Of a stretch of 54,481 nucleotides of DNA, positions 13,407-37,098 are shown one piece after another. The stretch lies in contig CAYWZO010000005.1 in the NCBI GenBank assembly GCA_964462865.1, forward strand, positions 1 to 54,481, written 5' to 3'. This stretch comes from an uncultured Dehalococcoidaceae bacterium (GTDB taxonomy: Bacteria > Chloroflexota > Dehalococcoidia > Dehalococcoidales > RBG-16-60-22). Position 1 is the stretch's first letter. Each line of letters starts with the position of its first letter. The translations under genes were made by a program, and so were the position numbers. The notes beneath the pieces are model-generated. The model was not told the DNA's origin and searched no databases. It was given only the letters and a program-made list of their open reading frames with translations.

Positions 13407-14183
13407 CTACAATGTCTGTTTATCACGGGCGGTCAGGGCCGCCCCGATAGCGGTGATGATGCGCGGCTCTTCGGGAACGATAACGGCCAGGCCGAGCTTT
13501 TGCCCCAGCAAATCGACGATGCTTGGGTTCCGGGCCACTCCCCCGATGAACAGGATATCTTTTTCAATCCTTAATTCCTGCAACAGCGAGGCCGCCTTGG
13601 CGGCGATGGCATCGCATACCGCCCGGGCGATATCGTCTTTATGGGATCCTTCGTTTATTAAGGAAATAACCTCGGATTCGGCGAAAATCGTGCAGGTGCT
13701 GTTCAGGGTTATCTTGTTTTTGGAGAGGAGTGAGGCCCGGCTGATGTCTGCCGCGGATAACTCCAGGATAGAGGCCATCTCGGTGATGAAAGCGCCGGCG
13801 CCGGCCGCGCACTGGTCGTTGCGGACGTACTGTAAAATCCGGCCCTCGCCGTCAAGCACCATGGCCTGGCTCTGCTCTGCACCGATGTCGATGACCGTCC
13901 TCGTCCCCGGGAAAAGCCATACCGCCCCTCTGGCGCTGCAGGTGGATTCCGTGGTATGGACGGTAGCCAGGGTAGCGCTTTCTTTCCCCATGCCGGTGGC
14001 CCCGACGTGAGTGATTTTCCCGGGGTCCAGGCAGGCTTTTTCGACTGCCTCATCGAAGGCGTTCTGTAACGATGCCTGCGTATCCCAGCCGCTGGGGACC
14101 ACGCTGTAAGCCAGCAGGCGGTCACCTTCGATAACCGCTACCTTGGTGTTTTCGGCACCTATATCTATTCCGGTACTTAACAT
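13407..14183 (-). CDS. ASKHA ATPase activase, benzoyl-CoA reductase BzdP-like
   Basis: GIDIGA, IDIGAEQ, RNDQCAAGAG, CTIFAESE; DIGAE variant as recalled for BzdP. Confidence 0.85.
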   Translation of the reverse strand: MLSTGIDIGAENTKVAVIEGDRLLAYSVVPSGWDTQASLQNAFDEAVEKACLDPGKITHVGATGMGKESATLATVHTTESTCSARGAVWLFPGTRTVIDIGAEQSQAMVLDGEGRILQYVRNDQCAAGAGAFITEMASILELSAADISRASLLSKNKITLNSTCTIFAESEVISLINEGSHKDDIARAVCDAIAAKAASLLQELRIEKDILFIGGVARNPSIVDLLGQKLGLAVIVPEEPRIITAIGAALTARDKQTL

Positions 14184-16789: not shown

Positions 16790-17785
16790 TTAATTATCCG
16801 CGTTAACCTCTCCGTCCCTGGTAAAAAGTAAACACGCCACAAAATGCCCTGGACTCACTTCTTTCATCGCCGGGGCGGTCTGCGAACAAATCGGCATGGC
16901 GCTGGCGCACCGCGGGTGAAAGGCGCAACCGCCGGGAGGATTAATGGGACTGGGCACCTCACCGGGGAGGATATTCCTGGTCCTCTTGGCATCCGGGTTA
17001 TCGGGCAGGCTGGCAGCCAGCAGGGCCTTGGTGTAGGGGTGCAGCGGGTTACGGCTTAACTCCCGGCTGGTGGTGTTTTCCACGATTTTTCCCAGGTACA
17101 TCACGCTGATCCGGTGGCTCATGTATTTGACCGTGGCCAGGTCATGGGCGATAAATAGGTAGCTGATACCCATATTGTTTTGCAGGTCTTTGAGGATGTT
17201 CATCAATTGCGCGCGGATGGAAACATCCTGCGAAGATACCGGCTCGTCAAGGATAATAAGACGTGGATTGGATACCAGTGCCCTGGCGATGGCAATCCTC
17301 TGCCTTTGCCCGCCGCTGAATTCATGGGGGTATTTACGGGCATCGTTGGGGTCCAGGCCGGCCGCCAGCAGCGCTGCCTCCACCCTGTTCCTGACATCTT
17401 TTTTATCGGTTTTCACGCCGGTGGTAATCGGCTCGCTGATGATGCTGCCAACGTGCATTCTCGGGTCCAGCGAGGAAAGGGGATTTTGAAAGACCGCCTG
17501 GACACTGTGGCGGTATCGCTTGAGGTCTTCTCCGGAAAAACCCCGCAGGTCCTTACCTTTGAATTCGATAAGACCATCGGTCGGTGGCTCCAGCAGAAGC
17601 ACGAGCTTGCTTAAAGTGGTCTTGCCACAGCCTGATTCGCCGAGCAGTCCGAGAGTCTCCCCGTCGCCGATACGTATATCCACCCCGTCAACGGCTTTGA
17701 TCCACCCCAGTGTCTTGGCAAAGAGGAGTCCCTTGGTCACCGGGTAATATTTTTTAACGCCCTTGGTCTCCAGTATCGTTTCCAT
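16790..17785 (-). CDS. Dipeptide/oligopeptide-type ABC transporter ATP-binding subunit (DppF/OppF-like)
   Basis: GESGCGKTT, FSGGQRQRI, ILDEP, HPYT, GCAFHPRC; start ATG 17785 overlaps the upstream TAA. Confidence 0.93.
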   Translation of the reverse strand: METILETKGVKKYYPVTKGLLFAKTLGWIKAVDGVDIRIGDGETLGLLGESGCGKTTLSKLVLLLEPPTDGLIEFKGKDLRGFSGEDLKRYRHSVQAVFQNPLSSLDPRMHVGSIISEPITTGVKTDKKDVRNRVEAALLAAGLDPNDARKYPHEFSGGQRQRIAIARALVSNPRLIILDEPVSSQDVSIRAQLMNILKDLQNNMGISYLFIAHDLATVKYMSHRISVMYLGKIVENTTSRELSRNPLHPYTKALLAASLPDNPDAKRTRNILPGEVPSPINPPGGCAFHPRCASAMPICSQTAPAMKEVSPGHFVACLLFTRDGEVNADN

Positions 17786-18774
17786 TATTGCTGTCCCTGT
17801 GCTTGCCAGCATCTGGCATAATGGTCCGGTCCTACCTGTCTCAAAGGAGGCACTTCGCGGTGGCAGCCCTCGTTGGTCTGGGAACAACGCGGTGCAAAGC
17901 TGCACCCCTCGGGCACCCTGTCGAGCCTGGGCGGCTGTCCCTTGATGGAGACCAGTCTTTCGGTCTCCTTCTCCAGTTTGGGGACTGCCTTGAGTAGAGC
18001 TGCGGTGTACGGATGGACCGGCCGGAAGAAAATGTCCCTTACCGGGGCGGTTTCCACCACCTTGCCGGCGTACATCACGGCCACGCGGTCGCACATCGAA
18101 GCTACAATCCCGAAATCATGGGTAATGAATATCAACGACATCCCGAATTCATCCTGAAGGTCTTTGAGGAGTTGCAGGTATTGTGCCTGGATGGTCACAT
18201 CCAGAGAAGTGGTTGGTTCGTCAGCAATCAGCAAACGCGGGTGACAGGAGATGGATATGGCGCCAACAACCCGCTGCTTCATGCCCCCGCTCATCTGGTG
18301 GGGATAATCGCGGAGGCGTGCCTCGGGAGAGGGTATCTTCACGCGTTTGAGCATGTCAATGATTCTCGATGCGAGGTCTATCTTTTTAACTCGGGTATGC
18401 GTGGTGATGGCCTCGCCTATCTGGTCGCCGATATTGAACACCGGATTCAAGGACGCCATCGGGTCCTGCAAAATCATGGATATTTTTCTCCCGCGGAGCT
18501 TTTGCACCTGCTTTTCCGTCATCTTTAAAATATCTTCACCCTCGAAGAGGATTTGCCCGCCCACGATGTTACCGGCGGGCCGGGGCAATAATCTCAATAT
18601 GGAAAGCGAGGCCACGGTCTTGCCGCACCCTGATTCACCCACAATGCCCAGGGTCTCATTTTCATCAACGTGAAAACTGACTCCATCCACAGCTTTGACC
18701 GTAGAGTACGGTGTAATAAAATAAGATTTCAGGTCAATTACATCTAGCAACCGTTTCCCCAAAATTTCCTCCAC
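17785..18774 (-). CDS. Dipeptide/oligopeptide-type ABC transporter ATP-binding subunit (DppD/OppD-like)
   Basis: GESGCGKT, MSGGMKQR, IADEPTT, HPYT, GCSFAPRC. Confidence 0.93.
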   Translation of the reverse strand: MEEILGKRLLDVIDLKSYFITPYSTVKAVDGVSFHVDENETLGIVGESGCGKTVASLSILRLLPRPAGNIVGGQILFEGEDILKMTEKQVQKLRGRKISMILQDPMASLNPVFNIGDQIGEAITTHTRVKKIDLASRIIDMLKRVKIPSPEARLRDYPHQMSGGMKQRVVGAISISCHPRLLIADEPTTSLDVTIQAQYLQLLKDLQDEFGMSLIFITHDFGIVASMCDRVAVMYAGKVVETAPVRDIFFRPVHPYTAALLKAVPKLEKETERLVSIKGQPPRLDRVPEGCSFAPRCSQTNEGCHREVPPLRQVGPDHYARCWQAQGQQ

Positions 18775-18784
18775 AAGCTTTTTT

Positions 18785-19660
18785 CTAACGCCGGTGTATC
18801 AACGGGTTAAGCCAGTCGTTGAGCGCATCCCCCAGCAGGTTAAAGGTCAGCACGGTTAAAGCGATGGCAATGCCCGGAATGATACAGAGCCACCAGGCGG
18901 TAACGATGTATGACCTGCCTTCGGACACCATCGAACCCCAGTCGGCGGTGGGCGGCGGGATACCGACACCCAGAAAACTCAACGAGGCCTCGACGATAAC
19001 AATCGTACCTACCTGAAGGGTCGCCAGGATAATAATCGGACTGACGACGTTCGGGAATATATGGCGCGTCATGATACTTGCCCGGGAGCAGCCGGCAATC
19101 TTGGCCAGGGCAATAAAATCGAACTCTTTGACCTTTAGTGTCTCGGCCCTGGCCATCCTGGCGTAGCCGGCCCAGAGTGTAAAGCTGATTATCATGACCA
19201 GTATCTGAAAACTCGGCCCGAAGATAGCCCCCAGGAGCAGGGCCAGCAGTATGGCCGGCAGTGAAAAAACCAGGTCTACCGCTCTCATGATGATGATGTC
19301 GGCCCAGCCGCCGATATAGCCGGCGATGATGCCCAGGAGGGTCCCCAGGGTGCCGGCGATGATGACCACCAGGGCGCATACCGAGAGCGTCGTCCTGGCG
19401 CCGAAGATGATACGGCTTAATATGTCCCTGCCGAGCGTGTCGGTTCCCAGGGGGAAATCAGACCTGCCGCCTTCCTGCCAGACCGGCGGTAGCAGGCGGT
19501 TGTCCAGCACGCCGACATTGGGGTCGTGAGGCGCGACCCATGGCGCCAGTAGCGCCGTCAGTATTAATATCAGTCCGATAATGCTGAATATTATAACTGT
19601 CGGGCTAAGGCGTATTTTCCTACCTTTTACGTTCTTTTCATTTAATTGTATGTCGCTCAT
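18785..19660 (-). CDS. ABC transporter permease (DppC/OppC-like)
   Basis: LGTDTLGRDILSR, RHIFPN, EASLSFLGVG, DWG. Confidence 0.93.
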   Translation of the reverse strand: MSDIQLNEKNVKGRKIRLSPTVIIFSIIGLILILTALLAPWVAPHDPNVGVLDNRLLPPVWQEGGRSDFPLGTDTLGRDILSRIIFGARTTLSVCALVVIIAGTLGTLLGIIAGYIGGWADIIIMRAVDLVFSLPAILLALLLGAIFGPSFQILVMIISFTLWAGYARMARAETLKVKEFDFIALAKIAGCSRASIMTRHIFPNVVSPIIILATLQVGTIVIVEASLSFLGVGIPPPTADWGSMVSEGRSYIVTAWWLCIIPGIAIALTVLTFNLLGDALNDWLNPLIHRR

Positions 19661-19711
19661 AGGCTATTCTCGGGCCTGTTATATCATTCGTTCTTTTTCT
19701 TGAGCCGTTTT

Positions 19712-20632
19712 TTACGTATATCTGATACGAGGGTCGACATAGGCGTACAATATATCAACAACTAGGTTCGCGGTAACGAACATAAAGGTGATGAAAAGTA
19801 CCACCGCCTGAATCATGGGGAAATCCCGGGTGGAGACCGCTTCCCAGGCCAGGCGGCCCAGTCCCGGCCAGGCGAATATCGTCTCGATAACCACCACCCC
19901 GGTCATCAGTCCTGTCAGCAGCGTACCGAGAAATGTCAGCACCGGTATCAGGCTGTTGCTGAAGGCGTGCTTCCAGATGACCAACCTTTCGTCCAGCCCC
20001 TTGATTCTGGCCAGCTTAACGTACTCCCCGCTCAAGACATCCAGCATGCTAGAACGCGTCAGGCGGACGATGCCCGCTAAGGATATTCCGCTTAAAGCTA
20101 CCGCCGGCAAAATTATCTGCTTGAAGCTGCCGTAACCGGAGGTGGGCAGCAGGCGGAATTGCACGCTGATAACGTACATCAGGACGATACCGACCCAGAA
20201 AGCCGGCATGGACTGTCCCAGCATCGCCAGCACCCTGCCTGCGGTGTCCAGAAACGACCCACGGCGCACAGCGGAAATTACCCCTATCGGTATGCCGATG
20301 ATAATACTCAAGAGCATGGCGGCGACAGCCAGTTGAAAAGAAGCCGGTATCCTCTCCACGATCTGGTCCACCACCGGACGGCGCGCGCCCCGGATTGACC
20401 TGCCGAGGTCTCCCTGCAGCGCCTTTTTCAAGAAGATGGCGTATTGAACCGGTATTGGTTTGTCCAGCCCTAGTTCCCTGGTTACCAGCTCGACATCTTC
20501 CTTGGTGGCGAGGTCACCCAGCAACAGGGGTACCGGGTCGCCGCTCAATCTTCCCAGAAGGAAGACGATAATGCTCATCAGGAAGATGGTTATAATCGCC
20601 TGAATAATACGTTTGATAAGATATCGCTGCAT
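19712..20632 (-). CDS. ABC transporter permease (DppB/OppB-like)
   Basis: GDLGRS, SMPAFW, TRSSMLDVL...ARIKGL, ETIFAWPGLG, DPRIR. Confidence 0.93.
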   Translation of the reverse strand: MQRYLIKRIIQAIITIFLMSIIVFLLGRLSGDPVPLLLGDLATKEDVELVTRELGLDKPIPVQYAIFLKKALQGDLGRSIRGARRPVVDQIVERIPASFQLAVAAMLLSIIIGIPIGVISAVRRGSFLDTAGRVLAMLGQSMPAFWVGIVLMYVISVQFRLLPTSGYGSFKQIILPAVALSGISLAGIVRLTRSSMLDVLSGEYVKLARIKGLDERLVIWKHAFSNSLIPVLTFLGTLLTGLMTGVVVIETIFAWPGLGRLAWEAVSTRDFPMIQAVVLFITFMFVTANLVVDILYAYVDPRIRYT

Positions 20633-20939
20633 TTCCTTATTTCATCGAGTTCAGAAACCCGGTACGTTTACTCTCAAACGTCTCCTATAAATTATAAATA
20701 CATCACGTGTTATCAGCTATGCTTCAATAGCATGTGCAATTTATAGAAAATACCAGCTAGCACGGTCCTGGCGGAACAGAGGCATTATCCCGATATAACC
20801 TGACTATTACCTCTGTTCCGCCCAACGTTCTGATTAGACCGATGGCACTTTATCTTACGGCTGATAACCTTTATACTTCAACAGTCCGAAGTTATCCAAC
20901 CGGTGTCCAATATTCTATTTAAGCCGCTTATCATTATCA

Positions 20940-22649
20940 CTATTGCGCTTTGGTAATCTGGTCGAAGTTCGTGGGATAGTTGGTGATAGTCGGCCAGCTC
21001 CCGATTACCGGGTTGACGGCGTAGGGTTCCTCGGCGCTGATCAGGAAGATAAAAACAGCCTCGTCGGTAAGGTAGTCATAGATATCTTTTAATAACGCGA
21101 GCCTCTTGGCGGAGTCCGGCTCACTAAGGGCCGCGTCCGACATCTTATCGAGCTCCGGCGTGGTAAATATCGCGAACACGCTTTTATCCGTATAAGCCGC
21201 CGTCAGACCGCCCGGGTCGTCCAGAGCAATGGGTGCCCCATAGGTGTGGGTCCAGAACATGTTCTGGGCTTTCGCTCCGGTCCAGGATGCCCTGATAGTG
21301 GGATAGTCGGTCGGTATTATTTTTACATTAATACCTACGGCTTCCCAATAGGTAGCAACCGCCAATCCGATATCAGGGAGTTGCGCGCCTGGATTTCTGG
21401 CACAGGTGTAAAAAGTTACATCGAAACCATTGGGATAGCCTGCATCGGCTAACATTTGCTTTGCCTTAGCTTCGTTGTAGGGGTATGCCGGTGCTGCCTG
21501 GTCGACGAAATTGTGTGGATTGAAGTTGGACCTGGCCGCGCCGTGGAAAATGTTCCTGGCAATAGCGTCTTTATCGACAGCGTAGTTCAGGGCCTGGCGG
21601 ACTTCCTTTTTAGCCCAGGGGGCCGTTGGGTTATAACGAACAGGGTCGGTCTCCACCAGGCCGCCCATTAAGATTCTCGGCGCCCAGGAGTCTTTCTGGG
21701 CGAGGATGTTGAATTTTGAGGCCTTGACCGTATTGACGGAGTCCAGGCTGATGGGGGCCATATCGGCCTCGCCGACTTTCAGCATCGCCACCCGGGTTGA
21801 TTCCTCCGGTACGCCGTAAAAGATAATATCCTTAAATTCCGGGGTGACGCGCCAGTGGTTTTCCACGCCGGGAACGGTGGTTACTTTAATCGATACGCCG
21901 CGTTTATGTTCGGCCAGGGTATAGGCGCCGGTCCCGATGGGGTGAGAATCAGCCCTTTCATCACCCACCTGCTCAACGTACTTCTTACAGACGATATGGT
22001 TGGAAATGGTATTGGAAAGCCTGTTCCAGAACGTAAAGTCGGCGGTGTTAAGTTTAAAGACGGCCGTATATTTATCAGGGGTTTCGACGGTAAGATCAAA
22101 GGAGCGGAAAGTTGATGCTTGGGCTGCCTTGGAAGCAGGTTCAATTTGTCGTTCGAAAGTGTACTTGACGTCCGCGGATGTCAATTCGCCCCAGTTTTCA
22201 TGGAATTGAATGCCTTCCCGCAGCTTGATGGTCCAGGTCTTGCCGTCAGGCGTCATTTCCCAGGACTTTGCCAGACCGGGCAGGGGCAGTTTGGTGGCGG
22301 GGTCCAAGTAAAGCAGGTACTCGAAAATTGTATCGATGTAGAATTTCCGCCCTGAAGCACCGTTCCAGGGCAGGAAAGTCTCGTCCTCCAGACCGGGCAT
22401 GGCTACCTTTAAAACACCGGTGGGGGACTTCTTCGCCGCGGTAGGGGCGGTAGTGGTTGCCGGCGTCGTCTTCGGAGTGGTGGCCGTGGGTGTGGTGGTC
22501 GCCGCTGGTGTGGTGGTTACGACTGGTTTCGTGGTGGTTGCCGGAGCGGTCGTTGTCTCGGTTGTTTTACAGGAACCGACCAGGAGCATGAAGACCGTCA
22601 TCAGGATTAAGGCAAGACTACAGGCAAGGACTAACTTGTTTCTCTTCAT
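20940..22649 (-). CDS. Family 5 ABC substrate-binding lipoprotein with Thr/Pro-rich linker
   Basis: Lipobox LVGS-C; PGLAKSWE, LREGIQFH, PIGTGAY, VRQALNYAVD, AKQMLADAGYPNGF. Confidence 0.92.
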   Translation of the reverse strand: MKRNKLVLACSLALILMTVFMLLVGSCKTTETTTAPATTTKPVVTTTPAATTTPTATTPKTTPATTTAPTAAKKSPTGVLKVAMPGLEDETFLPWNGASGRKFYIDTIFEYLLYLDPATKLPLPGLAKSWEMTPDGKTWTIKLREGIQFHENWGELTSADVKYTFERQIEPASKAAQASTFRSFDLTVETPDKYTAVFKLNTADFTFWNRLSNTISNHIVCKKYVEQVGDERADSHPIGTGAYTLAEHKRGVSIKVTTVPGVENHWRVTPEFKDIIFYGVPEESTRVAMLKVGEADMAPISLDSVNTVKASKFNILAQKDSWAPRILMGGLVETDPVRYNPTAPWAKKEVRQALNYAVDKDAIARNIFHGAARSNFNPHNFVDQAAPAYPYNEAKAKQMLADAGYPNGFDVTFYTCARNPGAQLPDIGLAVATYWEAVGINVKIIPTDYPTIRASWTGAKAQNMFWTHTYGAPIALDDPGGLTAAYTDKSVFAIFTTPELDKMSDAALSEPDSAKRLALLKDIYDYLTDEAVFIFLISAEEPYAVNPVIGSWPTITNYPTNFDQITKAQ

Positions 22650-22792: not shown

Positions 22793-24013
22793 TCAGATTA
22801 CTTTTTCTTCTTTAAACTGCGTAATATCATCCCAACTGTACCCCCCAAGCTCCTGAAGCACCTCCTCGGTATGCTGGCCGAACTCCGGCGCCGGGCTCTG
22901 GACACCCGCCGGTGTAGTGTGGAATTTTACCGGACATCCTACCGTTTTTATTCTTCCGAGTGAAGGCTGCTCGTATTCCACGACGTATTTGTTATCCAGA
23001 ATCTGCGGGTCATCGGCCACATCCAGTCCCTCGTTGATGGGAGAAAACATGATGCGATGATATTTGCCCACGATTTCCACCCACTCGTCGCGCGGTTTGG
23101 TAGCAAAGACTTGGTCTAAAATATCTATCAATTCCCGGCAGTTTTTCGCCCTGGCCGGGGTGCTTTCGAACTTCGGGTCCTTTTCAAGATTTTCGATGCC
23201 GGCGGCCTTACAAAAATCCGGCCATACCCTGTCCGTGGCCAGGATGCAGAAACTGATCCATTTGCCGTCCTTACATTTGTAATGATTGGCGAGGGGATTG
23301 CTGACTGATTTCCTGTCTTCCCGAAGGAGTTCCTTCTTGTAAAAAAAGGTGTTGGTCAGTCTGACATGCTGGAGCGCGACCATGGAGCCGGTGATGGAAA
23401 TATCGATTTCCTGGCCGATTCCCAGCCTTTCCCGGGCCAGCAGCGCCGCTAATATGCCGTCAACGGCGATAATTGAAGTCATATGGTCGGCCATGGCCCC
23501 GCCCACTGCCGCCGGTTCCCCGAGGAGCGCCGTCTGGTTGGTCATGAAGCCGGAACGTGCCTGGCCCACATAGTCATTGCCGCGGCGCCAGTTGTCCGGC
23601 CCGTCAGGGCCAAGGCTGGATATATTGGCGTAAATTATCTTGGGATTGTATTGGGAAATCGTCTTGTAATCTAAATTCGCACGGTCACGCACGGACTGCC
23701 TGAAGTTCTGCAGAAAAACATCGCACTTTTGCACGAGCCGGTATATTATTTCCTTGCCTTTAGGTGTGGTGACGTCTACGGTGATGCACTTTTTATTACG
23801 GTTCACGCCGGTATACATGAATTCTCTCTCGGCGGTGGTGCGTCCCGTCGCCATCCCTTCCAGCCGCGTGATGCCGCGGCTGGGGTCGCCGACGACGGGT
23901 TGTTCGATCTTGATTACTTCCGCGCCCATATCTCCGAGCATCATGGTTGCCCCCGGGCCCGCCAGCCATATTGCCCACTCTAAAATACGGATACCATCTA
24001 AAGGTTTAGCCAT
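22793..24013 (-). CDS. Family III (CaiB/BaiF) CoA-transferase
   Basis: LGDMGAEVIKIE, NRNKKCIT, DVFLQNFR, MADH, APEFGQHT. Confidence 0.93.
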   Translation of the reverse strand: MAKPLDGIRILEWAIWLAGPGATMMLGDMGAEVIKIEQPVVGDPSRGITRLEGMATGRTTAEREFMYTGVNRNKKCITVDVTTPKGKEIIYRLVQKCDVFLQNFRQSVRDRANLDYKTISQYNPKIIYANISSLGPDGPDNWRRGNDYVGQARSGFMTNQTALLGEPAAVGGAMADHMTSIIAVDGILAALLARERLGIGQEIDISITGSMVALQHVRLTNTFFYKKELLREDRKSVSNPLANHYKCKDGKWISFCILATDRVWPDFCKAAGIENLEKDPKFESTPARAKNCRELIDILDQVFATKPRDEWVEIVGKYHRIMFSPINEGLDVADDPQILDNKYVVEYEQPSLGRIKTVGCPVKFHTTPAGVQSPAPEFGQHTEEVLQELGGYSWDDITQFKEEKVI

Positions 24014-24140
24014 TGTATCATGCCTTTCTAAAAATGATTTTTTACTGTGGTATTTGTCTTGTTATTTCTCTTGTTCACGGATGTCCCGCTTTTAAAGGTT
24101 GAATCCGTCAATGAACAAGAAGTGAGAAATGAAATTCACT

Positions 24141-24171
24141 ACATCATATACTATATAGAATATGATGTCAA
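24141..24171 (-). promoter_or_regulatory. Near-consensus sigma70 promoter overlapped by a 28-bp palindromic operator
   Basis: Minus strand TTGACA (24171-24166)-17 nt-TATGAT (24148-24143); palindrome ACATCATATACTATATAGAATATGATGT (24141-24168) is 26/28 self-complementary. Confidence 0.8.
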
Positions 24172-24355
24172 TATCGATATTAAATGTTTTTTCATTTTCG
24201 GTGAAGGAAATGGGATACATTAAAGATATAAAGTAAGGAATACTTGAGAATTTGTTGCTGTTTTATAAGAAAGCTGGTTAGTGGCTTAAACGCGCCCGGC
24301 GCTTTGAATCAGATAGTTGCCAGTAAATATCACCGGTCCGGTGTCAGAACTGCGC

Positions 24356-26749
24356 TCAAGCCGTTTGGTATTCTGTCCGGGCGATGATTTCATCCTGTAT
24401 TACTTTACCCAGCCCCGTAAAGTAGGCGCTGTAACCGGCCACCCTGACAATCAGGTCGCGGTGTTTTTCTGGATGCTGCTGGGCGTCCAGAAGCGTCACC
24501 CTGTCAACGATGTTGAATTGGACATGCTTGCCGCCAAGTTCAAAATAGGTACTGATTAAAATGGCGAGCTTACGCCTGTCCTCTTCCGTCCCGAGTGCGG
24601 ATGTATGGAATTTCATGTTCAGCAGTGTTGCCTGGAGGGTACTCTGGTCAATTTTCGAGGCGCTTTTCATGACCGCCGTCGGGCCGCGTACGTCTTGGCC
24701 CTGTACCGGCGACATACCGCCGTCGGCCAGGAACGTACCGGAATATCTGCCGTCGGGGGTGGCGCCTGTTTGGGCTCCCCCGGGCCACTGCGCCGAGATG
24801 GAAATAGCCGAGGGTTTATGTGTCCCGCCTACTATCGTGGGGAAATTTGCGGTAATTTCTGAAAAATACCTGTAAAGCTCGGCAGCCAGAGAGTCCGCGT
24901 AATCATCGTCGTTTCCGTACTTGGGTGCTGCCATAAAGGCTTTCCTCATCGCCTCGTAGCCTGCCCAGTTGGCGTGCAGAGCGGCCTGTAGTTCTCTCAT
25001 GGTGTATTTCCGCTCTTCGAAGATGAGCTTTTTGACCGCCGCGAGGGAATCGACCACATTGACCATGCCCACGGTGTTGAGCACCGCGCCATTCTCGAAG
25101 GGATAGGTACGGTCGAGAAGGCTCCGTCCCACCCTGACAGGGTCATCCAGCAGAGCGGTACGCACCGGGTCGGGGAAGATATCGGCATGAGCGCTCATCC
25201 AGATGTTATTATACTCGGCGTTCAATTGCAGGAAGTAAGACAGCTGTTGTTTAAAGGCGTTCACGAGTTCGTCGAAAGATTGAAAGGTCTCCGAATCTCC
25301 CGTTTTCGGGCCGAGTTGCCTTCCTGTTTTCGGGTCCACGCCGTTGTTCAGGGTGATATCCAGCACCATCGGCGTGATGAACATGGCAAAGGCGCTGATG
25401 CGGGATTTCCCCGGGATACTGGCGTCAAGGCAGCCGCCCAGGGCGTAATTCCTTGCGTCTTCGAGCGGGACTCCCTGACGGCACAGATAACTGATATACG
25501 AATTATCACCAACAAAAGCAGGCAGGCCGATTCCGGTCTGAAGTACTTCGATACTTTTAAGTAACAGCGCCTCGGGTGTTTTTTCGTGCACTCTCACGGT
25601 GATGGTGTGATGGGGCGTGGGACAGCGCCGCGCCGCTTCCAGGATAAGGTAGGAAAGCTCATTGGTGGCGTCCTGCCCGTCACGCGTCTGACCGCCGATA
25701 ACACAGTTATGCCATTTGGCTTTGCCGGCATCTTTCTGTCGGTTCTCCTTGCCCGATATTCTGTTCAACTCCATGTCCTTGATGCGGAGGCACTGCAGCA
25801 GCTCAAGTGCTTCCTCATCGGAGATAAGTCCCTGCTCTATATCCCTTTTGTAATAGGGATAGAGATATTGGTCCATTCTGCCCATCCCCGCCACCGTGGA
25901 AGGGTTAATCATCAGGAAGGCAAACCAGAAAGACTGGATGGCTTCACGGAAAGTGCGCGCCGGATTGGCCGGCACCTGCCGGCACGTGGCGGCGATTATC
26001 TCCAGTTCTTTTTTACGTGCCGGGTCCTTTTCCCTTATCGCCGTCTGTGCCGCGAGTATGGCGAACCTGCTGGCGAAACGGACGACGGCGTTGAGTGAAA
26101 TAATCAGGGCATTAAGAAAATGTCCCTTTTCTACCGAGCCGGTATTCAGGAACGTGAGTTTTTGAAGTTCCTTCTCTGCCTCATTGATGATATCGAGCAG
26201 GCCGTGCTGGAGCACTTTCTCGTAATCTTCAACGTTATTGTAAAAGCCCGGGCCGAGTCCCATGCCGCTCTCGGCGTAGCCGCCGCCGCTCCCTTCCGCT
26301 TTGCTTTTCCAGGGCGCCAGCACCATGCCCGTTTGCATGAAGGGCCAGAGCCTTTCATCATCAAAAGAATGGCCTATCCTGGCAACGAGGCTCTTTCCTC
26401 TCCAGTATTCGTTGATAGCTTCAGCCTCTCTTAAATCGCGGTCGTTGATTAACCACCCCTCCTCTTTCAGGGCGTTTATTTCATCCTCCGGCCAGGGCCC
26501 GTAATTAAACTCCATCTCGACACCCAGGTAGGTGCTGGCCCCGTTGCCGACGATGAGTTCGCCCTCCCTGATGAAAATGGTGATGTTGTCCAGGGAATGA
26601 GCCAGGGCTTTAGCTCTTCTAAGAATCTCCGGTTCACCCTCGGTCTGCCGGAACACCTCCGTCATCAGCCGCGCCTTTTCAATGCAGACGGGATATTTTT
26701 CGACCCGGAGCCCTGCCTTCAGTTTTTCAATCCGTGTTGTGCTCATCAT
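24356..26749 (-). CDS. Glycyl radical enzyme (PFL-like family), unknown reaction
   Basis: C-terminal RVAGYS glycyl motif, HVQFNI, TPDGR, single-Cys loop GGCLD; 797 aa. Confidence 0.93.
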   Translation of the reverse strand: MMSTTRIEKLKAGLRVEKYPVCIEKARLMTEVFRQTEGEPEILRRAKALAHSLDNITIFIREGELIVGNGASTYLGVEMEFNYGPWPEDEINALKEEGWLINDRDLREAEAINEYWRGKSLVARIGHSFDDERLWPFMQTGMVLAPWKSKAEGSGGGYAESGMGLGPGFYNNVEDYEKVLQHGLLDIINEAEKELQKLTFLNTGSVEKGHFLNALIISLNAVVRFASRFAILAAQTAIREKDPARKKELEIIAATCRQVPANPARTFREAIQSFWFAFLMINPSTVAGMGRMDQYLYPYYKRDIEQGLISDEEALELLQCLRIKDMELNRISGKENRQKDAGKAKWHNCVIGGQTRDGQDATNELSYLILEAARRCPTPHHTITVRVHEKTPEALLLKSIEVLQTGIGLPAFVGDNSYISYLCRQGVPLEDARNYALGGCLDASIPGKSRISAFAMFITPMVLDITLNNGVDPKTGRQLGPKTGDSETFQSFDELVNAFKQQLSYFLQLNAEYNNIWMSAHADIFPDPVRTALLDDPVRVGRSLLDRTYPFENGAVLNTVGMVNVVDSLAAVKKLIFEERKYTMRELQAALHANWAGYEAMRKAFMAAPKYGNDDDYADSLAAELYRYFSEITANFPTIVGGTHKPSAISISAQWPGGAQTGATPDGRYSGTFLADGGMSPVQGQDVRGPTAVMKSASKIDQSTLQATLLNMKFHTSALGTEEDRRKLAILISTYFELGGKHVQFNIVDRVTLLDAQQHPEKHRDLIVRVAGYSAYFTGLGKVIQDEIIARTEYQTA

Positions 26750-27069: not shown

Positions 27070-27100
27070 CTACTACAACTTTACCTTGTGAGGAGTGAAA

Positions 27101-28285
27101 ATGAAGATATCCAAAATAGAATGCTTCCCGCTTAGCTTGGTTTACCCACCGCCCAGAAAGCGTACCGGCAAAGTCGTCCTGATAAAAATACATACCGACG
27201 AGGGTATCGTGGGGGTGGCCGAATGCGGAGATTTAATCAATACTTCGTACGACCAGGACATCGTGATGCTCATAATCAAAAGCTGGGAGCCTGTCCTGAT
27301 CGGGGCCAATCCCTTCGATAAAGAGCTTATCCTGGCTAAAATCAACCATCTTATCCATAACGTTACCGGCGGTCTGTCTTTCCCCAACGTGGTGGCACTG
27401 ATCGACTTCGCTTTATGGGACCTGGTGGGAAAGGCGTTGAACCAGCCCATTTACCAGCTCCTGGGGGGAAAAGCCTGTGACAAGCTGGCTGTCGATTACG
27501 TGATTGGCGACGTCGCCAACCTGTCACCCGCAGAGATAGCTAAAAAGGTAGAAAGGATTCTGGACAACGGCATCCGGACCGTTTGTCTCAAGGTGGGAGG
27601 TTTCTGGGGCAGCGATTTCGAACGCGATATCCTGAATGTGAAGACCGTTAGAAAAGCCATCGGCGACCGCGAAGACGTACACCTGTGCATCGATGCCAAC
27701 GGGGCCATGGATTACACCAAATCGCTGGAGCTAATCCGCCGCCTGGAGGACTGTAACCTGTACAAGTTCGAGCAGCCCACGTTTTCGTGGGACGTGGATG
27801 GCCTGGCGCGTTTACGCAAGAGTACCAAAGTCGCTATCTGCCCGCATGAGAGCAGTACCACGGTTTCTGCCCTGATGGAGGTCATTAAAAAAGACGCCGG
27901 CGACTTCGCAGGCACCAAGCTTGCCTGGGCGGGCGGTATCTCCGAGGGGGTGAAGTGGGGAGCCGTCGCCAAAGCGGCTGACCTAGGTGTGTATTGCGGC
28001 TCTATGAACGGGCCTTATGAGGCGGTGTTCCAGGCACAATGGCTGGCTTCAGACGCCTGGTACGGTAAACTTGCCCATGCCAATTTCTTTCCTATGATGT
28101 TCCATGATACCTTTGATACTACCCGCGACCTACAACGGGAAGATATCGTCGTCAGACCTATGGCCTACAAGGATGGCTACTTCTATCCGCCTGATGGGCC
28201 AGGCGTAGGTCTGGAGCTGAATGAAAAGGCCCTCCCTAATTTCATTACGCCGGGAATGAGCCCCATCACGATTGGGGGGAAATAG
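27101..28285 (+). CDS. Enolase superfamily protein (mandelate racemase/muconate lactonizing enzyme type)
   Basis: TDEGIVGVAE, IDFALWDLVGK, DANG, FEQP, PDGPGVG; AGGAG RBS before ATG 27101. Confidence 0.9.
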   Translation: MKISKIECFPLSLVYPPPRKRTGKVVLIKIHTDEGIVGVAECGDLINTSYDQDIVMLIIKSWEPVLIGANPFDKELILAKINHLIHNVTGGLSFPNVVALIDFALWDLVGKALNQPIYQLLGGKACDKLAVDYVIGDVANLSPAEIAKKVERILDNGIRTVCLKVGGFWGSDFERDILNVKTVRKAIGDREDVHLCIDANGAMDYTKSLELIRRLEDCNLYKFEQPTFSWDVDGLARLRKSTKVAICPHESSTTVSALMEVIKKDAGDFAGTKLAWAGGISEGVKWGAVAKAADLGVYCGSMNGPYEAVFQAQWLASDAWYGKLAHANFFPMMFHDTFDTTRDLQREDIVVRPMAYKDGYFYPPDGPGVGLELNEKALPNFITPGMSPITIGGK

Positions 28286-28442: not shown

Positions 28443-31118
28443 ATGACAAACGATTTATTTGAAGACCGTCATGAGGCCGGTCATCACCAGAAAAAAGCGC
28501 AGGCAGGATTGGACAAAACTGTATATAAATCACTTGGCCTTATGGGCTTGATGGGTGGTGGAGGACCTTGCGCCGTGGATGTCAGGAACGGAAAGATACT
28601 GAGAGTCAGGCCATTACATTTCGACTCTAAATATACCCGCGAGCATATCGAAGTCTTTAAGTTTAAAAGGAACGGCAAGGTCTTCGAGCCGTTGCTGAAA
28701 TCTTTGCCTTACCCGATTGCGCTGGCCTACAAGAAACGGTCTTATTCCCCTAACCGTATCAAATACCCGCTCCAGCGCATTGACTGGGACCCGGCCGGAG
28801 ACAGGCATGCCGAGAACCGTGGTATAAGCAAATATAAAAGAATATCCTGGGATGAAGCTGCCTCCATCATCGCCGGGGAAATCAGGAGGATTCAAAGGCA
28901 GTACGGTACGGCGGCCATCCTGGCCCAGGCGGACGGCCATGCAGAGTGCAAGAGTGTCCATGCCCCTCACGGTTGTCAAACACTCCTCCTCAGTAAAATC
29001 GGGGAATATACGCAGCAGGTAAGGAACCCGGATAGCTGGGAAGGCTGGTACTGGGGCTCGATGCACGTATGGGGCGATGGTGACGTCGGTTTGATGAACC
29101 CGAGTTTGAACACGGCCAAAGACTGCACCGAACACTCGGAAATGCTGCTTTTTTGGGGATGTGACCCGGAAACGACGCCCGGCGGGGCCGGTTCACAGTC
29201 AGCCTCCGCTTTATGCTTTTTCTGGTCGCAGGTGGGCATCAAACAGGTTTATATCTGCCCCGATTTAAACTACGGTGCCGCCGTCCATGCCGATAAATGG
29301 ATACCGGTGCTGCCCAATACGGACGCGGCCATGCAATTGGCGATAATCTACACGTGGCTTACCGAGGGCACCTATGACAAAGAATACATAAAAACTCACA
29401 CGGTGGGGCTGGAAAAAGTAGCCGATTATGTCCTGGGCAGGGAAGACGGTATACCCAAAACTCCGGCCTGGGCATCGGCGAAGTGTGGCGTCCCGGAGTG
29501 GACGATAAAAGCCCTGGCCAGGGAGTTTGCCTCTAAAACAACTTCGATTATGCATGTGCTCGGCGGCTCATTTATTAGAGGTCCCTATTCCACCGAGCCT
29601 GCCCGGCTGGAATCCATCTTGCTGGGCATGCAGGGGTTGGGGAAACCGGGCGTCCACCAGTGCGCTAACGTCGGCACTCTGCCCAGGACTTCCTGGATGT
29701 CGCGAACTTCCCTGCATATACATAATCTGGCGTCTCAAGCCGCCCGGGACGCTGCTAATAACCGTATTCTCCGTCCGCACCTGGCTACCCGCAACGTCTT
29801 CACCAAGCAGCAACTCCCCAAGACGCTCATTCAAGAAGCCATCCTCAATCCTCCCGTCAGTTTTTGGGGCAACGGTGCCATCGATTCTCCGCGCGAAGAC
29901 CAATTTAAAAAGTACACTTATCCCCTCCGCAGTGAAGAGGGAGGGTCGGAAATACACATGATATGGACTGACACCCCTTGCCGCACCACCTGCTGGAATA
30001 ACGGCAACAGGACTATCGAAGCCCTGAGAAGTCCCAAGATTGAATGTATCGTGGCCCAGCACCCCTGGCTGGAAAACGACTGCCTGCTGGCGGATATTAT
30101 CCTGCCCACCAACACTACCATGGAAGTAGAAGATATTATGGCTAACACCCGGGGTAATATACCCTGCGCGGCAGTCACTTACCAGGAAAAGGCGATTGAA
30201 CCTATCGGAGAATCCAAGAGCGACTATGAAGCAGTCCTGGAAGTAGCCAAGAAGCTGGATCTATATGATAAAGTGACAGGTGGTAAGACTGCGGAAGAGT
30301 GGATTAAGGATGTTTTTGATACCAATATGGCCAATTTTGTAAGCTGGGAAGAACTAAGAGAAAAGGGGTATTATCCTTTCCCGGCGGCCAGGGACTGGGA
30401 AGATGACCCGCCTGGCCTGAGAAAATTTTATGAAGACCCTGTAAAAAATCCCCTGTCCACGCCAAGCGGAAAACTGGAGTTTTACTCCGCGAGAATAGCA
30501 CAGGTTTTTCCCGATGACCCTGAAAGACCACCGGTTCCCAGATGGATTGAAAAGGGGATTACTCATGATGAGAGGCTTTCCAGTGAAAGAGCCAGGATGT
30601 TTCCTTTGCTCCTGATGTCCAATCATGGTAGGTGGAGGGTGCATGCTCAATGTGATGATATATCTTGGACCAGGGAAGCTCCCACCTGCAAAGTCAAAGG
30701 TTGGGATGGCTACATGTATGAGCCACTCTGGATTAACCCGAAGGACGCGGAAACAAGAAGCATTAAGACTGGAGATATTGTTAAAATCTACAATGAAAGA
30801 GGCACGGTGCTTGGTGGAGCCTATGTAACTGAGAGACTGATGCCAGGGGTTGCCTATATTGACCATGGGGCGAGGTGTGATTGGATTATTCCGGGAAAGC
30901 TGGACCGAGGAGGCGCTATTAACTTGATTTCTCCATGCGGAATTATTTCCCAGCATGCTGGTGGAGAAGCTACCAGCGCCTACCTTGTGGAGGTGGAAAA
31001 AGTAAGCATGCAGCAAATGGATGAGTGGAAGAGGCAATATACCGATGCATTTGAAAGACAGTATAACCCGGCGTCCGGGTTGCAGTTTAACGCCTGGGTC
31101 GAAGGAGGAATAGACTAA
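28443..31118 (+). CDS. Mo/W-bisPGD oxidoreductase, pyrogallol transhydroxylase large subunit (AthL)-like clade
   Basis: NPDSWEGW Ser-ligand motif, PNTDAA, ADIILP, TPSGKLEFYS, HAQ; no N-terminal FeS Cys motif; no Tat signal. Confidence 0.88.
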   Translation: MTNDLFEDRHEAGHHQKKAQAGLDKTVYKSLGLMGLMGGGGPCAVDVRNGKILRVRPLHFDSKYTREHIEVFKFKRNGKVFEPLLKSLPYPIALAYKKRSYSPNRIKYPLQRIDWDPAGDRHAENRGISKYKRISWDEAASIIAGEIRRIQRQYGTAAILAQADGHAECKSVHAPHGCQTLLLSKIGEYTQQVRNPDSWEGWYWGSMHVWGDGDVGLMNPSLNTAKDCTEHSEMLLFWGCDPETTPGGAGSQSASALCFFWSQVGIKQVYICPDLNYGAAVHADKWIPVLPNTDAAMQLAIIYTWLTEGTYDKEYIKTHTVGLEKVADYVLGREDGIPKTPAWASAKCGVPEWTIKALAREFASKTTSIMHVLGGSFIRGPYSTEPARLESILLGMQGLGKPGVHQCANVGTLPRTSWMSRTSLHIHNLASQAARDAANNRILRPHLATRNVFTKQQLPKTLIQEAILNPPVSFWGNGAIDSPREDQFKKYTYPLRSEEGGSEIHMIWTDTPCRTTCWNNGNRTIEALRSPKIECIVAQHPWLENDCLLADIILPTNTTMEVEDIMANTRGNIPCAAVTYQEKAIEPIGESKSDYEAVLEVAKKLDLYDKVTGGKTAEEWIKDVFDTNMANFVSWEELREKGYYPFPAARDWEDDPPGLRKFYEDPVKNPLSTPSGKLEFYSARIAQVFPDDPERPPVPRWIEKGITHDERLSSERARMFPLLLMSNHGRWRVHAQCDDISWTREAPTCKVKGWDGYMYEPLWINPKDAETRSIKTGDIVKIYNERGTVLGGAYVTERLMPGVAYIDHGARCDWIIPGKLDRGGAINLISPCGIISQHAGGEATSAYLVEVEKVSMQQMDEWKRQYTDAFERQYNPASGLQFNAWVEGGID

Positions 31119-31128
31119 TTTTAATAAG

Positions 31129-32223
31129 GTGGACGATATGTCGCAACGCAAGGCAGCCATGACTGAAGGGCAACGCTTGGCCGCTGTATTAAACCGGGAA
31201 AAGCCAGACAGGGTCCCTAACTGGCCTTTTTTTGATTTAACCGGTTTTTCTGCCGTATACCACCAGCGTCCTGTTGCGGCTGCGTACCTTGACCCCCGGG
31301 AGTCGCTGGATATGCAGCGCGCCGTCTGCCGGGACTTCCAATGGATATGCAGCCCCTTCTTCGCACTCTTTGGTGCTAACGAGTTCGGCGGTGAGGTGAA
31401 ATTACCGGATAGCCAGTATGCGCAGGCCCCGACCATTACCCGTTTCCCTGTGGAAAAGGAAGAAGACGTCCGGAAGCTAAAGATACCGGATATCAAGAAT
31501 TCGCCCAGCGTCGCCAGGGAGATTGAGTTCTATCAAATAGCGTCTAAAGAGCGCTTTGACAACGAGCCGTTCCGGGTTTATCTACCAAGCATCGAACCTT
31601 TTGGCTTTGTTGGCAAGTTATGCCGGCTGGAACTGCTAGCCAGGTGGATGCTCCGGAAACCGGAGATCGTCCTGGAGTTATTGCAGTTCGCTGATAGCTA
31701 TCTAGCAGAGATGATAAAACACTGGCGCGATATCTTCGGCACGGAAGACGTTATCGCCAGGAGCGGCGGTGTAATATCGAGTAACCAGCTAATCTCCCCG
31801 CGACTGTTCGAGCGGTTCGTGTTTCCTTTCCTGAAGGAGAGCCACCGGAAAGTGCTGGAAATGGGCTATCGGCACATCTACTGCCATATCTGTGGTGACC
31901 ATAACATGAATATGAAGTATTGGGCGCAGGTCCCTATGGGGGACCCCGGAATAGTAAGTATCGGCCATGAGGTGGAACTGGAAACGGCAGCGCAATATTT
32001 CCCCGACGACATCATCCTGGGCAACCTGGAGCCATCAATCCTGCAGACGGGCACAGCGGATGAGGTCTATGAAGCCACCAGGAAGGTGGTTGAAAAAGGA
32101 AAAAGGTTGTCTGGTGGCTATATCTTCTCATTGGGTTGCCAGTTTCCTCCGAGGGCTAGCCTGGATAACGCCCGCGCCATGAACCAGGCCATTGAGGATT
32201 ACGGGTGGTACGATAAGGTCTGA
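31129..32223 (+). CDS. UroD-fold methyltransferase (MtaA/CmuA-like)
   Basis: PDRVP, ISPRLFERF, CHICGD, ILGNLEP, LGCQ; start may be ATG 31138. Confidence 0.85.
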   Translation: MDDMSQRKAAMTEGQRLAAVLNREKPDRVPNWPFFDLTGFSAVYHQRPVAAAYLDPRESLDMQRAVCRDFQWICSPFFALFGANEFGGEVKLPDSQYAQAPTITRFPVEKEEDVRKLKIPDIKNSPSVAREIEFYQIASKERFDNEPFRVYLPSIEPFGFVGKLCRLELLARWMLRKPEIVLELLQFADSYLAEMIKHWRDIFGTEDVIARSGGVISSNQLISPRLFERFVFPFLKESHRKVLEMGYRHIYCHICGDHNMNMKYWAQVPMGDPGIVSIGHEVELETAAQYFPDDIILGNLEPSILQTGTADEVYEATRKVVEKGKRLSGGYIFSLGCQFPPRASLDNARAMNQAIEDYGWYDKV

Positions 32224-32236
32224 TTAATGGATAAAG

Positions 32237-32908
32237 GTGGTAAAGAGAATGGCTAGCGAAGCAAGGAAACAAGAACTGATAAAGTCAATTTACCACGCGG
32301 TCATTGACATGGATGAAGCGAAAACACGCAAGCTCTGCCTGGAGGCTCTTGATGAGGGGATTGACGCTTACCATACCGTAACTCATGGGCTAACAGCGGC
32401 GATGGACAGGGTGGGTGTGCTCTACGCCGAAAGAACATATTTTGTCCCGGAGCTTTTGCTGTGCTCGGATGCGCTTTACGCAGGACTGGAGGTGTTACGC
32501 CCGTACCTCAAGATAAACGAACTGGCCACCAGGAGGCAGATTATCATCGGCACCGTTGAAGGCGATATCCATGATATCGGCAAGAACCTGGTGAAGATAA
32601 TGTTCGAGGCCGCCGGCTGGGAGGTGCGCGACTTGGGGAGGGATGTCGCTTTACCAAGATTCCTCGAGGAATATAAAAAGCAACGCGCCGATATCATCGC
32701 CATTTCTGCCCTGATGACGACGAGCATGCTGGCCATGCCCAGAGTAATCAAGATGGTCAGGGCGGAGTACCCGGATGTAGCCATCATGGTTGGCGGCGCT
32801 CCCCTGACCAGGGAGATAGCTACAAGTTATGGAGCCGACGGCTACGCCGAGAATGCCGGGACAGCCGTGCCCGAAGCGCAAACGATGCTGGCAAGGCTGG
32901 GTAAATGA
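32237..32908 (+). CDS. Corrinoid (B12-binding) protein
   Basis: GTVEGDIHDIGKNLV (DxHxxG), SALMTT, MVGGAP, GADGY; N-terminal cap domain. Confidence 0.93.
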   Translation: MVKRMASEARKQELIKSIYHAVIDMDEAKTRKLCLEALDEGIDAYHTVTHGLTAAMDRVGVLYAERTYFVPELLLCSDALYAGLEVLRPYLKINELATRRQIIIGTVEGDIHDIGKNLVKIMFEAAGWEVRDLGRDVALPRFLEEYKKQRADIIAISALMTTSMLAMPRVIKMVRAEYPDVAIMVGGAPLTREIATSYGADGYAENAGTAVPEAQTMLARLGK

Positions 32909-37016: not shown

Positions 37017-37098
37017 TGGGGAAGGGGGGACTCGAACCCCCACGCATTGCTGCACTGGATCCTAAGTCCAGCCCGTCTGCCAGTTCCGGCACTCCCCC
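37017..37098 (-). tRNA. tRNA-Leu (TAG)
   Basis: Reverse complement GGGGGAGTGCCGGAACTGGCAGACGGGCTGGACTTAGGATCCAGTGCAGCAATGCGTGGGGGTTCGAGTCCCCCCTTCCCCA; long variable arm; CCA not encoded. Confidence 0.95.

Follow-up and report, generated by a model that had tools for sequence, protein, structure and literature searches.

A glycyl radical enzyme with a C-x-D cysteine loop and no adjacent activase in an uncharacterised environmental clade

Glycyl radical enzymes (GREs) are oxygen-sensitive and depend on an activase that generates a radical on a glycine residue; this radical gives rise to a thiyl radical on a cysteine, which attacks the substrate. Genes of the arylacetate decarboxylase (AAD) type are usually described with an activase gene of their own. 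Seven GRE classes are distinguished in a review of June 2026 (PMC13450708), which notes that whole GRE clades have never been tested. According to this review, a C-x-E sequence is kept in all of the eliminases, namely, glycerol dehydratase (GD), propanediol dehydratase (PD), HpfG, HypD, HpyG, HpzG, CutC, IslA/IseG and HpsG, and in all of the isomerases, namely, HplG, YbiW and PflD (sections 5.6-5.7). 4-Hydroxyphenylacetate decarboxylase (HPAD) has Cys503/Glu505 together with a small subunit, and Cys500/Glu502 are the corresponding residues of indoleacetate decarboxylase (IAD). In PAD, Gln484 is essential, and AAD (Cys447; Lu et al. 2021, as cited in PMC13450708 and PMC13285125) has no small subunit. 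We examined a GRE gene on the minus strand of contig CAYWZO010000005.1 from an uncultured Dehalococcoidaceae bacterium of salt-marsh sediment, the whole 54,481 bp of which are referred to as the window. An earlier note, made from the sequence alone, had described an unusual GGCLD cysteine loop and the lack of a nearby activase and had proposed a new GRE class, possibly an arylacetate-type decarboxylase activated in trans; its account of the Glu at Cys+2 in eliminases and of the acid and small subunit of HPAD agrees with the review. The reading that we prefer, and to which we give about an even chance, is that the protein would be a catalytically competent, trans-activated GRE whose substrate is an organic anion taken up from outside; the most likely reaction is a radical decarboxylation in which Asp442 relays the proton.

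Translation of the gene gave one open reading frame (ORF) of 797 amino acids with an ATG start and no internal stops; the database gene call begins at the second Met and yields 796 amino acids. Pfam analysis detected the PFL-like barrel (E 5.5e-178; PF02901, 594 bits) and the C-terminal glycyl radical domain (E 2.6e-33; PF01228, 115 bits), the domain combination of the PFL-like GREs (IPR004184). In HMMER alignments, Cys440 occupied the position of the catalytic Cys433 of GD and of Cys447 of AAD, as expected for the catalytic cysteine of a PFL-like GRE, and Asp442 occupied the position of Glu435 of GD. Cys440 is the sole Cys of its loop and no CC dipeptide is present anywhere in the protein. 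The RVxG[FWY] fingerprint (defined in PMC11528403) is present near the C-terminus as RVAGYS, with Gly772 at the radical-bearing position. The single Cys in GGCLD and the intact RVAGYS that had been read from the sequence were both confirmed. An AlphaFold2 model built on 59 relatives (pLDDT 85, pTM 0.89; residues 653-686 poor) matched every solved GRE with TM scores of 0.85-0.92 and GD, PD and CutC with scores of 0.90-0.92; as all GREs fell in this range at 28-36% identity, the fold search did not discriminate between GRE classes.

Contigs from four independent salt-marsh metagenome runs (2019 and 2025) covered the gene with single-nucleotide polymorphisms only and no indels, indicating that the sequence is not an assembly artefact. 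Comparison with an 84%-identical homologue (L001) gave a dN/dS of 0.11, indicative of purifying selection. The intact catalytic elements, the standard GRE fold, the low dN/dS and the invariance of the motifs in 119 relatives argue that this gene very probably encodes a working GRE. In three metagenome runs (X1, X3 and X5), the contig depth doubled and several contigs branched at the end of the glycyl radical domain (24344-24460), and a spurious joint skipped 24447-25850. This pattern is consistent with paralogous GREs in the same communities that have identical words in this region.

A search of 5.8 billion proteins detected more than 120 clusters with 59-84% identity to the GRE protein, all of them unnamed or generically named. 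The relatives derive from metagenome-assembled genomes (MAGs) of Syntrophorhabdaceae, Syntrophus, other Desulfobacterota, Dehalococcoidia/Chloroflexota, Dethiobacter, Bacillota and Spirochaetes, and their habitats are salt marsh, freshwater and marine sediments and digesters; the closest genome match (84% identity) was a contig of an uncultured Dehalococcoidaceae MAG. Gly439, Cys440, Asp442 and RVAGYSA were invariant in all 119 full-length relatives (at least 59% identity), position 441 being Leu or Ile, which indicated that the Asp is not there by chance. Asp at this position (Cys+2) occurs in no characterised GRE, as judged from the classes of the review and the AAD alignment. The wider clade comprised 18 clusters at 39-55% identity among 50%-identity representatives. 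Of these, 13 had C-x-D; the others had Glu, Gly, Pro or Tyr at Cys+2, and one had no catalytic Cys. C-x-D was found in none of ~75 more distant GREs sampled from genomes. The idea that C-x-D is unique to the clade was rejected, as it occurred sporadically in 5 of ~120 other representatives. A 54%-identical paralog (L083, minus strand) and one representative (P0121) have C-x-E, so that Asp and Glu interchange inside the clade.

The signature of the clade extends beyond the Cys loop. An insertion of ~10 residues after barrel strand beta1, with the pattern PPWKxxxEGxGGG...G.G, was present in all family members and in the 50%-cluster representatives P0121-P0140 but not in GD, AAD or other GREs; the loop after beta1 forms part of the active sites and substrate channels of GREs (PMC13450708, section 4.3). 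The AKWHN strand is invariant in the family and places Trp346 at the position of Tyr339 of GD; its counterpart is FHN in AAD and YQN, FQN or FIN in eliminases. Similarly, the PHHTITVRVH strand corresponds to PHPTLSVRWH in AAD and PQPSLSVRIW in GD. Across members, the signature consists of AKWHN, PHHT.T.RVH, a 3- to 4-residue deletion before GRxDQ, and G.SR after the Cys loop. Arg450, in the latter motif, is a candidate anchor for an anionic group. Two 50%-cluster representatives in the clade have altered motifs: in P0143, Ala stands in for the catalytic Cys (GALS) and the Gly loop reads, unusually, RLGGGSCYF, and P0127 has RIGGCSAYF and C-L-G. These proteins may be non-catalytic or differently wired paralogs.

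No description of the clade was found in the literature on Dehalococcoidia, Syntrophorhabdus and Chloroflexi/TRAP. The GRE protein is a member of a distinct and uncharacterised, but already sequenced, environmental clade and is no singular novelty. The proposal of a new GRE class stood insofar as the clade is discrete, has no characterised member, carries its own active-site signature and shows at most 38% identity to any solved GRE; it fell short in that the window protein is one member of a large clade already represented in environmental sequence.

The relationship of the clade to characterised GREs was examined by full-length scores and by phylogeny. Full-length scores were highest to GD (PDB 1R8W; E 7e-154, 38.5% identity), CutC, PD and HpsG. 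All NCBIfam cut-offs were missed, whether for HpsG (583 bits versus a cut-off of 1000), HpfG (481/1000), CutC (548/1050), HypD (524/1100), PflD (464/1109), HPAD (NF033715, 424/1150), IAD (NF033718, 515/1100 in three stretches) or PFL (TIGR01255, 139/994), and the general subfamily model TIGR01774 gave 620 bits against a cut-off of 678. High-identity clustering with a characterised GRE, which would have contradicted the earlier note, was not seen. Over the Cys-loop segment, AAD was the best PDB match (E 2.5e-18). In a neighbor-joining tree of 86 GREs, the family was monophyletic (100/100 bootstraps) and paired with AAD in 69/100. A second tree of 66 taxa, drawn from the 150 best representatives, recovered the window clade (100/100), the AAD clade (100/100) and their union (96/100), with the GRE protein outside the AAD clade. 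These trees suggest that the clade is sister to the AAD lineage. Any link to arylacetate decarboxylases runs through AAD and not through HPAD.

It is unlikely, in our estimation, that the protein is instead a 1,2-eliminase or isomerase (a dehydratase or a C-N, C-S or C-O lyase), in which Asp442 would be the base that deprotonates the substrate hydroxyl after hydrogen abstraction by Cys440. All eliminases and isomerases are marked by an acid at Cys+2, the top full-length scores are to GD, CutC, PD and HpsG, and the interchange of Asp and Glu within the clade also fits such an activity. However, the scores lie 400-600 bits below every eliminase equivalog cut-off, and the eliminase residues are not conserved: the position of His164 of GD falls in an indel, Ser282 is replaced by Val and Asp447 by Ala, and the sulfonate-binding Arg/Gln/Arg positions are likewise not conserved. 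Furthermore, the beta1 loop is rebuilt, the strand at residues 645-652 presents Ile/Ser, and phylogeny groups the clade with AAD and apart from the GCVE clades. Genes for aldehyde dehydrogenase, alcohol dehydrogenase or microcompartments, which are typical of eliminase loci, were present at no annotated family locus; this also speaks against an eliminase.

Some GRE homologues at other loci have Thr in place of the radical Gly (L040, 5123-5284 and 14837-14989; L073, 11803-11961), with the loops RVSTYSAYF, RVATYSAFF and RVATFSSYF. These homologues belong to the AARE class of threonyl radical enzymes, and one Oscillospiraceae locus contains two of them, as PMC11528403 describes.

The absence of an activase was examined over the whole window. 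No stop-to-stop frame of at least 60 amino acids contained CxxxCxxC, and Pfam scans of all large window ORFs gave no match to Radical_SAM or Fer4_12. The same CxxxCxxC search detected an activase, with the motif RTxVFxKGCPLRCxWCxNPE, beside nearly all of ~75 distant GRE comparison loci, indicating that the search was sensitive. The two intergenic regions flanking the GRE gene (~340 bp each) contained no credible ORF for a small subunit, and the Cys-rich short frames near the gene all lay inside larger genes in another frame, none being free-standing. Both absences reported in the earlier note, of a radical-SAM activase and of a small Cys-rich subunit gene nearby, were upheld by these scans. 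An Rfam scan of the window detected three tRNAs only and no riboswitch upstream of the GRE gene.

In order to place this absence in the family, 93 family loci were gathered and split by phylogeny into subclade A, which contains the window gene, and the rest of the family. A GRE activase was present at 0 of 14 subclade-A loci versus 44 of 86 others (Fisher P = 2.0e-4). The difference persisted when loci were restricted to those with flanks of at least 1.5 kb on both sides (0/10 versus 30/46; P = 1.5e-4) or at least 3 kb on both sides (0/8 versus 22/30; P = 2.6e-4). The sole radical-SAM gene near a subclade-A member (L087) was rejected as an activase, being an AmmeMemoRadiSam enzyme. In the rest of the family, the activase often lay 9-114 bp from the GRE gene. 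An apparently truncated activase in L083 was cut by a run of N in the record and not by mutation. The family-linked activases pass TIGR02494 (354 bits versus a cut-off of 174) and have a common N-terminal motif. Many loci have two or three family GREs, and on one 49.7-kb contig a single activase accompanies two of them that lie 12.5 kb from each other. Paralogs have the Gly loop RVAGYSAYF whether or not an activase gene lies beside them; identity of this loop is a known correlate of activase cross-reactivity, as for PflA with PflB and TdcE (PMC13450708, section 2.5).

On this distribution, the missing local activase is a lineage trait of subclade A. The subclade-wide absence, the activase-linked paralogs, the common Gly loop and the purifying selection, which was measured between two genes that both lack a local activase, point to a working enzyme and not to an orphan, and the GRE is probably activated in trans. 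What had been proposed on this point was supported for the lineage, and for the host genome it stays an expectation short of proof. The contrary explanation, that the genome has no activase and that the protein is inactive or decaying, is very improbable. Although no activase was present in 54 kb or at the 13 other subclade-A loci, 119 sequences from several phyla all keep the catalytic residues, the gene was intact in both the 2019 and the 2025 salt-marsh runs, and retention of a whole subclade without function is implausible. At five deltaproteobacterial loci (L002, L003, L004, L082 and L096), a conserved block upstream of the GRE gene encodes an EFR1-type flavodoxin-ferredoxin, TPR, DUF4037 and DUF4125 proteins and a GntR regulator. 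The flavodoxin-ferredoxin could donate electrons to an activase encoded at a distance.

Features of the GRE gene and of its surroundings are collected in Table 1. The conserved unit of subclade A consisted of a regulator of the GntR or IclR type, the GRE, and a transporter of the TRAP DctP(QM) or SBP_bac_5 type, and a TRAP or SBP_bac_5 gene lay beside the GRE gene at most subclade-A loci. This regulator-GRE-importer unit points to an imported organic anion. In the window, the ABC importer was the only neighbour with orthologues (47-64% identity) beside another family GRE (L086). From the transporter linkage and this orthology, we consider it fairly probable that the substrate is an imported anionic small molecule. 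The combination of a GntR regulator, a TRAP transporter and a GRE is also the layout of sulfonate-lyase loci, a point in favour of an eliminase. When the binding proteins, MmgE/PrpD, PGA_cap, URO-D and the enolase-superfamily neighbour were searched against NCBIfam and the PDB, no specific ligand emerged.

Table 1. Coordinates of the GRE gene, its motifs and other features of the window
Feature	Position	Strand	Basis or remark
GRE gene	24356..26749	-	ORF, Pfam PFL-like + Gly_radical, AlphaFold2 model, dN/dS
Clade-specific insertion after barrel strand beta1 (LAPWKSKAEGSGGGYAESGMGLGPGFY)	26240..26320	-	Alignments
AKWHN strand (K345, W346, H347, N348)	25706..25720	-	Invariant in family
PHHTITVRVH strand, clade-specific His380, His381, His388	25586..25615	-	Invariant in family
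Cys loop GGCLD, aa 438-442	25424..25438	-	Alignment to GD C433/E435, AAD C447
Cys440, thiyl-radical position	25430-25432	-	Alignment
Asp442, in place of usual Glu	25424-25426	-	Alignment
GKSRI after Cys loop	25397..25411	-	S449, R450 at least 90% conserved; not in AAD/GD
Gly loop RVAGYS, aa 769-774	24428..24445	-	Motif; RVAGYSAYF in paralogs adjoining activase
Gly772, radical-bearing Gly position	24434-24436	-	Motif
Family III CoA-transferase, directly downstream of GRE	22793..24013	-	Pfam
Opp/Dpp-type ABC importer, downstream on same strand, candidate substrate importer	16790..22649	-	Pfam
SBP_bac_5	20940-22649	-	Pfam
Importer permeases	19712-20632, 18785-19660	-	Pfam
Importer ATPases	17785-18774, about 16790-17790	-	Pfam
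BzdN-like subunit	15608-16732	-	317 bits versus cut-off of 454
BzdO-like subunit	14220-15563	-	180 bits versus cut-off of 449
Two different BcrAD ATPases	12580-14183	-	Pfam
Second family III CoA-transferase	11322-12536	-	
MarR regulator	10621-11106	-	
Enolase-superfamily gene, divergent, upstream of GRE	27095-28285		
tRNA genes, only Rfam matches in window	40-113, 129-199, 37017-37098	-	Rfam

The remaining neighbours of the GRE gene were considered for their bearing on the substrate. An undescribed GRE reaction on an aliphatic di- or tricarboxylate or an amino-acid- or opine-like acid, feeding a CoA-dependent pathway (CoA-transferase and then a BzdNOPQ-like ATP-dependent enzyme), would fit several of them. 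The GRE, the CoA-transferase, the importer, the BzdN/O-like and two BcrAD genes, a second CoA-transferase and the MarR regulator form a 15-kb co-directional cluster, and the adjacent CoA-transferase is closest to dicarboxylate-type enzymes, its closest solved relative being succinate-hydroxymethylglutarate CoA-transferase (E 1.6e-57). At subclade-B loci, genes for MmgE/PrpD, PGA_cap, AMP-ligase, CoA-transferase and HGD-D are frequent additions, the PGA_cap neighbour being related to the MslH epimerase, and CoA_transf_3 and enolase-superfamily genes also recur near family GREs. Furthermore, the active site is heavily remodelled, with clade-specific Lys345, His347, His380, His381, His388 and Arg450. 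Nevertheless, we regard such a pathway as rather improbable. The CoA-transferases beside other family GREs show only 28-30% identity, neighbours other than the importer are not orthologous between loci, and the conserved core of subclade A is the regulator, the GRE and the transporter only. Family III CoA-transferases are common in such genomes, so their adjacency may be due to chance.

Weak promoter- and terminator-like signals also separate the GRE gene from the cluster. A terminator-like hairpin (24331-24343) follows the GRE stop codon and precedes the CoA-transferase gene, and the best sigma-70-like match of the region (TTGACA-17-TATGAT; 24143-24171) lies between the two genes; the counts of such signals were not above shuffle expectation. 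This match (AT-rich 24140-24200, minus strand) lies within a near-palindrome (ATATCGATATTGACATCATATTCTATATAGTATATGAT), a possible operator. The CoA-transferase and the BzdNOPQ-like cluster were accordingly downgraded as a key to the substrate, and the link of the adjacent CoA-transferase to the GRE is uncertain.

The same CoA-transferase bears on an X-succinate-synthase-like hydroalkylase, whose succinate-derivative product it would activate as BbsEF does for benzylsuccinate. It matches benzylsuccinate CoA-transferase with an E value of 2.5e-36, and aromatic-catabolism genes surround the GRE gene. Set against this, its matches to succinate-hydroxymethylglutarate and formyl-CoA transferases are better, no beta or gamma subunit genes were found beside the GRE gene, BSS and MASS were among the weakest PDB matches, and NCMS Cys-loop sequences were distant in the tree. 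Such an activity is barely credible.

Several other genes of the window were of note. The BzdN-like, BzdO-like and two BcrAD proteins make up a four-subunit set resembling class-I benzoyl-CoA reductases, below the equivalog cut-offs, which may be an aryl-CoA reductase or a dehydratase. Two AhtL-like molybdopterin enzymes (pyrogallol hydroxytransferase large-subunit-like) and a URO-D/B12-binding/URO-D methyltransferase trio are encoded at 28443-33963 and 49381-51972, an AhtL-like gene and the methyltransferase set coming after the enolase-superfamily gene. These genes resemble an O-demethylation/trihydroxybenzene module, and the window looks like an island for lignin- or tannin-derived aromatics. 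A third CoA-transferase system, a family I alpha/beta pair with a D-2-hydroxyacid dehydrogenase, lies at 46086-48966 on the minus strand. A 473-amino-acid bacterial serpin (9075-10496; Pfam Serpin, E 4.8e-119) adjoins an M17 leucyl aminopeptidase.

For the preferred reading, the following mechanism can be proposed. A clade-specific radical-SAM activase, encoded elsewhere and, by comparison with other loci, probably beside a paralogous GRE, would abstract hydrogen from Gly772. The Gly772 radical would generate a thiyl radical on Cys440, which would attack the organic anion supplied by the neighbouring binding-protein-dependent importer. Asp442, which is one methylene shorter than Glu, would act as an acid/base, probably through a bound water, and would re-protonate the Cys440 thiolate in a Kolbe-type or hydrogen-atom-transfer decarboxylation. 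In the IAD structure, the Glu of C-x-E is set back from its usual place, which is taken by a water that passes a proton on to the Cys thiolate, an arrangement in keeping with a Kolbe-type decarboxylation (PMC13598205). By analogy, we infer that the shorter Asp would leave room for a similar relay water. An arylacetate or another lignin- or amino-acid-derived acid would be a guess at the substrate. Decarboxylation was preferred because of the sister relation to AAD, the single subunit, the minimal regulator-GRE-importer module and the absence of aldehyde-handling genes; taken by itself, radical decarboxylation of a carboxylate falls a little short of an even chance.

A number of observations weigh against this reading. 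Identity to AAD is 36%, AAD has Leu at Cys+2, and overall scores are slightly higher to the eliminases GD and HpsG than to AAD. The trees were neighbor-joining trees on simple distances with query-biased sampling, in which PAD, HPAD, IAD, PFL and BSS were not placed, these being judged through PDB and NCBIfam scores only. The adjacent CoA-transferase, assuming that its gene is linked to the GRE in the first place, would not be required by a decarboxylase of monocarboxylates, and the neighbours at subclade-B loci suggest pathways more elaborate than a simple decarboxylation. The GRE gene was not found among the RNA runs searched, and no activase for the host genome was found in the single 54,481-bp contig, the only part searched. 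The earlier suggestion of an arylacetate-type decarboxylase is thus weakly to moderately supported: among characterised lineages, AAD comes closest by neighbor-joining and is likewise without a small subunit, while the low identity to AAD, its Leu at Cys+2 and the poor comparison with HPAD speak against it.

A more far-reaching and doubtful proposal is that the C-x-D clade, which comprises 18 or more clusters at 50% identity, performs an undescribed GRE reaction, with each paralog adapted to an imported acid of its own and all of them dependent on the same activase. Radical decarboxylation or C-C or C-N cleavage of non-aryl di- or tricarboxylates or of amino-acid-derived acids would be an example. 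In Dehalococcoidia, Desulfobacterota and Bacillota of anoxic sediments, single genomes encode several paralogs of the clade. If the proposal were true, the GRE superfamily would gain a new functional class and a hub-and-spoke mode of activation that contribute to the turnover of carbon in sediments. An uncharacterised GRE clade is not surprising in itself, but this one is a well-defined and tractable target: it is large, environmentally widespread and easily recognised by its invariant Asp for Glu and its rebuilt substrate loop. Its position beside AAD could help to settle how GRE decarboxylases work. Furthermore, the activase-less and activase-linked subclades offer a natural test of whether one activase serves several enzymes, activase supply being a practical bottleneck in the study of GREs. 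Should the enzyme act on an acid derived from lignin or osmolytes, it would be relevant to the anaerobic turnover of carbon in coastal sediments.

Comparison with known systems places the window enzyme as follows. With the eliminases and isomerases (GD, PD, CutC, HypD, HpsG, IslA, HplG and YbiW), it has in common an acid at Cys+2 and a Gly loop of the RVAGYSA type; it differs in having C-L-D, with the Asp invariant in its family, in place of C-x-E, and in lacking an adjacent activase and aldehyde-processing genes. Pyruvate formate-lyase is set apart by its adjacent Cys-Cys pair, which the window enzyme lacks, and by the failure of TIGR01255. The Cys loop is also unlike the NCMS-type loop of X-succinate synthases, which are distant in the tree. 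HPAD and IAD have an acid at Cys+2 as well, which serves as a proton donor in decarboxylation, but HPAD is among the most distant matches (E 3e-88 in two stretches) and needs a small subunit, for which the GRE locus has no ORF. In addition, the N-terminal and internal extensions of HPAD and IAD (PMC13598205) are not present in the GRE protein.

For trans-activation, the precedent is PflA of Escherichia coli, which acts on both PflB and TdcE, GREs with a common Gly loop; these proteins belong to a different GRE class, and sharing of an activase in the window clade is suggested by gene distribution. The closest comparison is with AAD of Olsenella scatoligenes (PDB 7E7L; 36.2% identity). The family and AAD alone have in common [FW]HN, GMGRMDQ and the GGC that ends in the catalytic Cys; both have PH.T..VR.H, and both are single-subunit enzymes without a small Fe-S subunit. 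They differ at Cys+2, which is Leu in AAD (GGCVLHQ) and Asp in the window enzyme, and AAD has neither the 10-residue PPWK...GGG insertion nor the second His of PHHT nor the Arg of GKSR.

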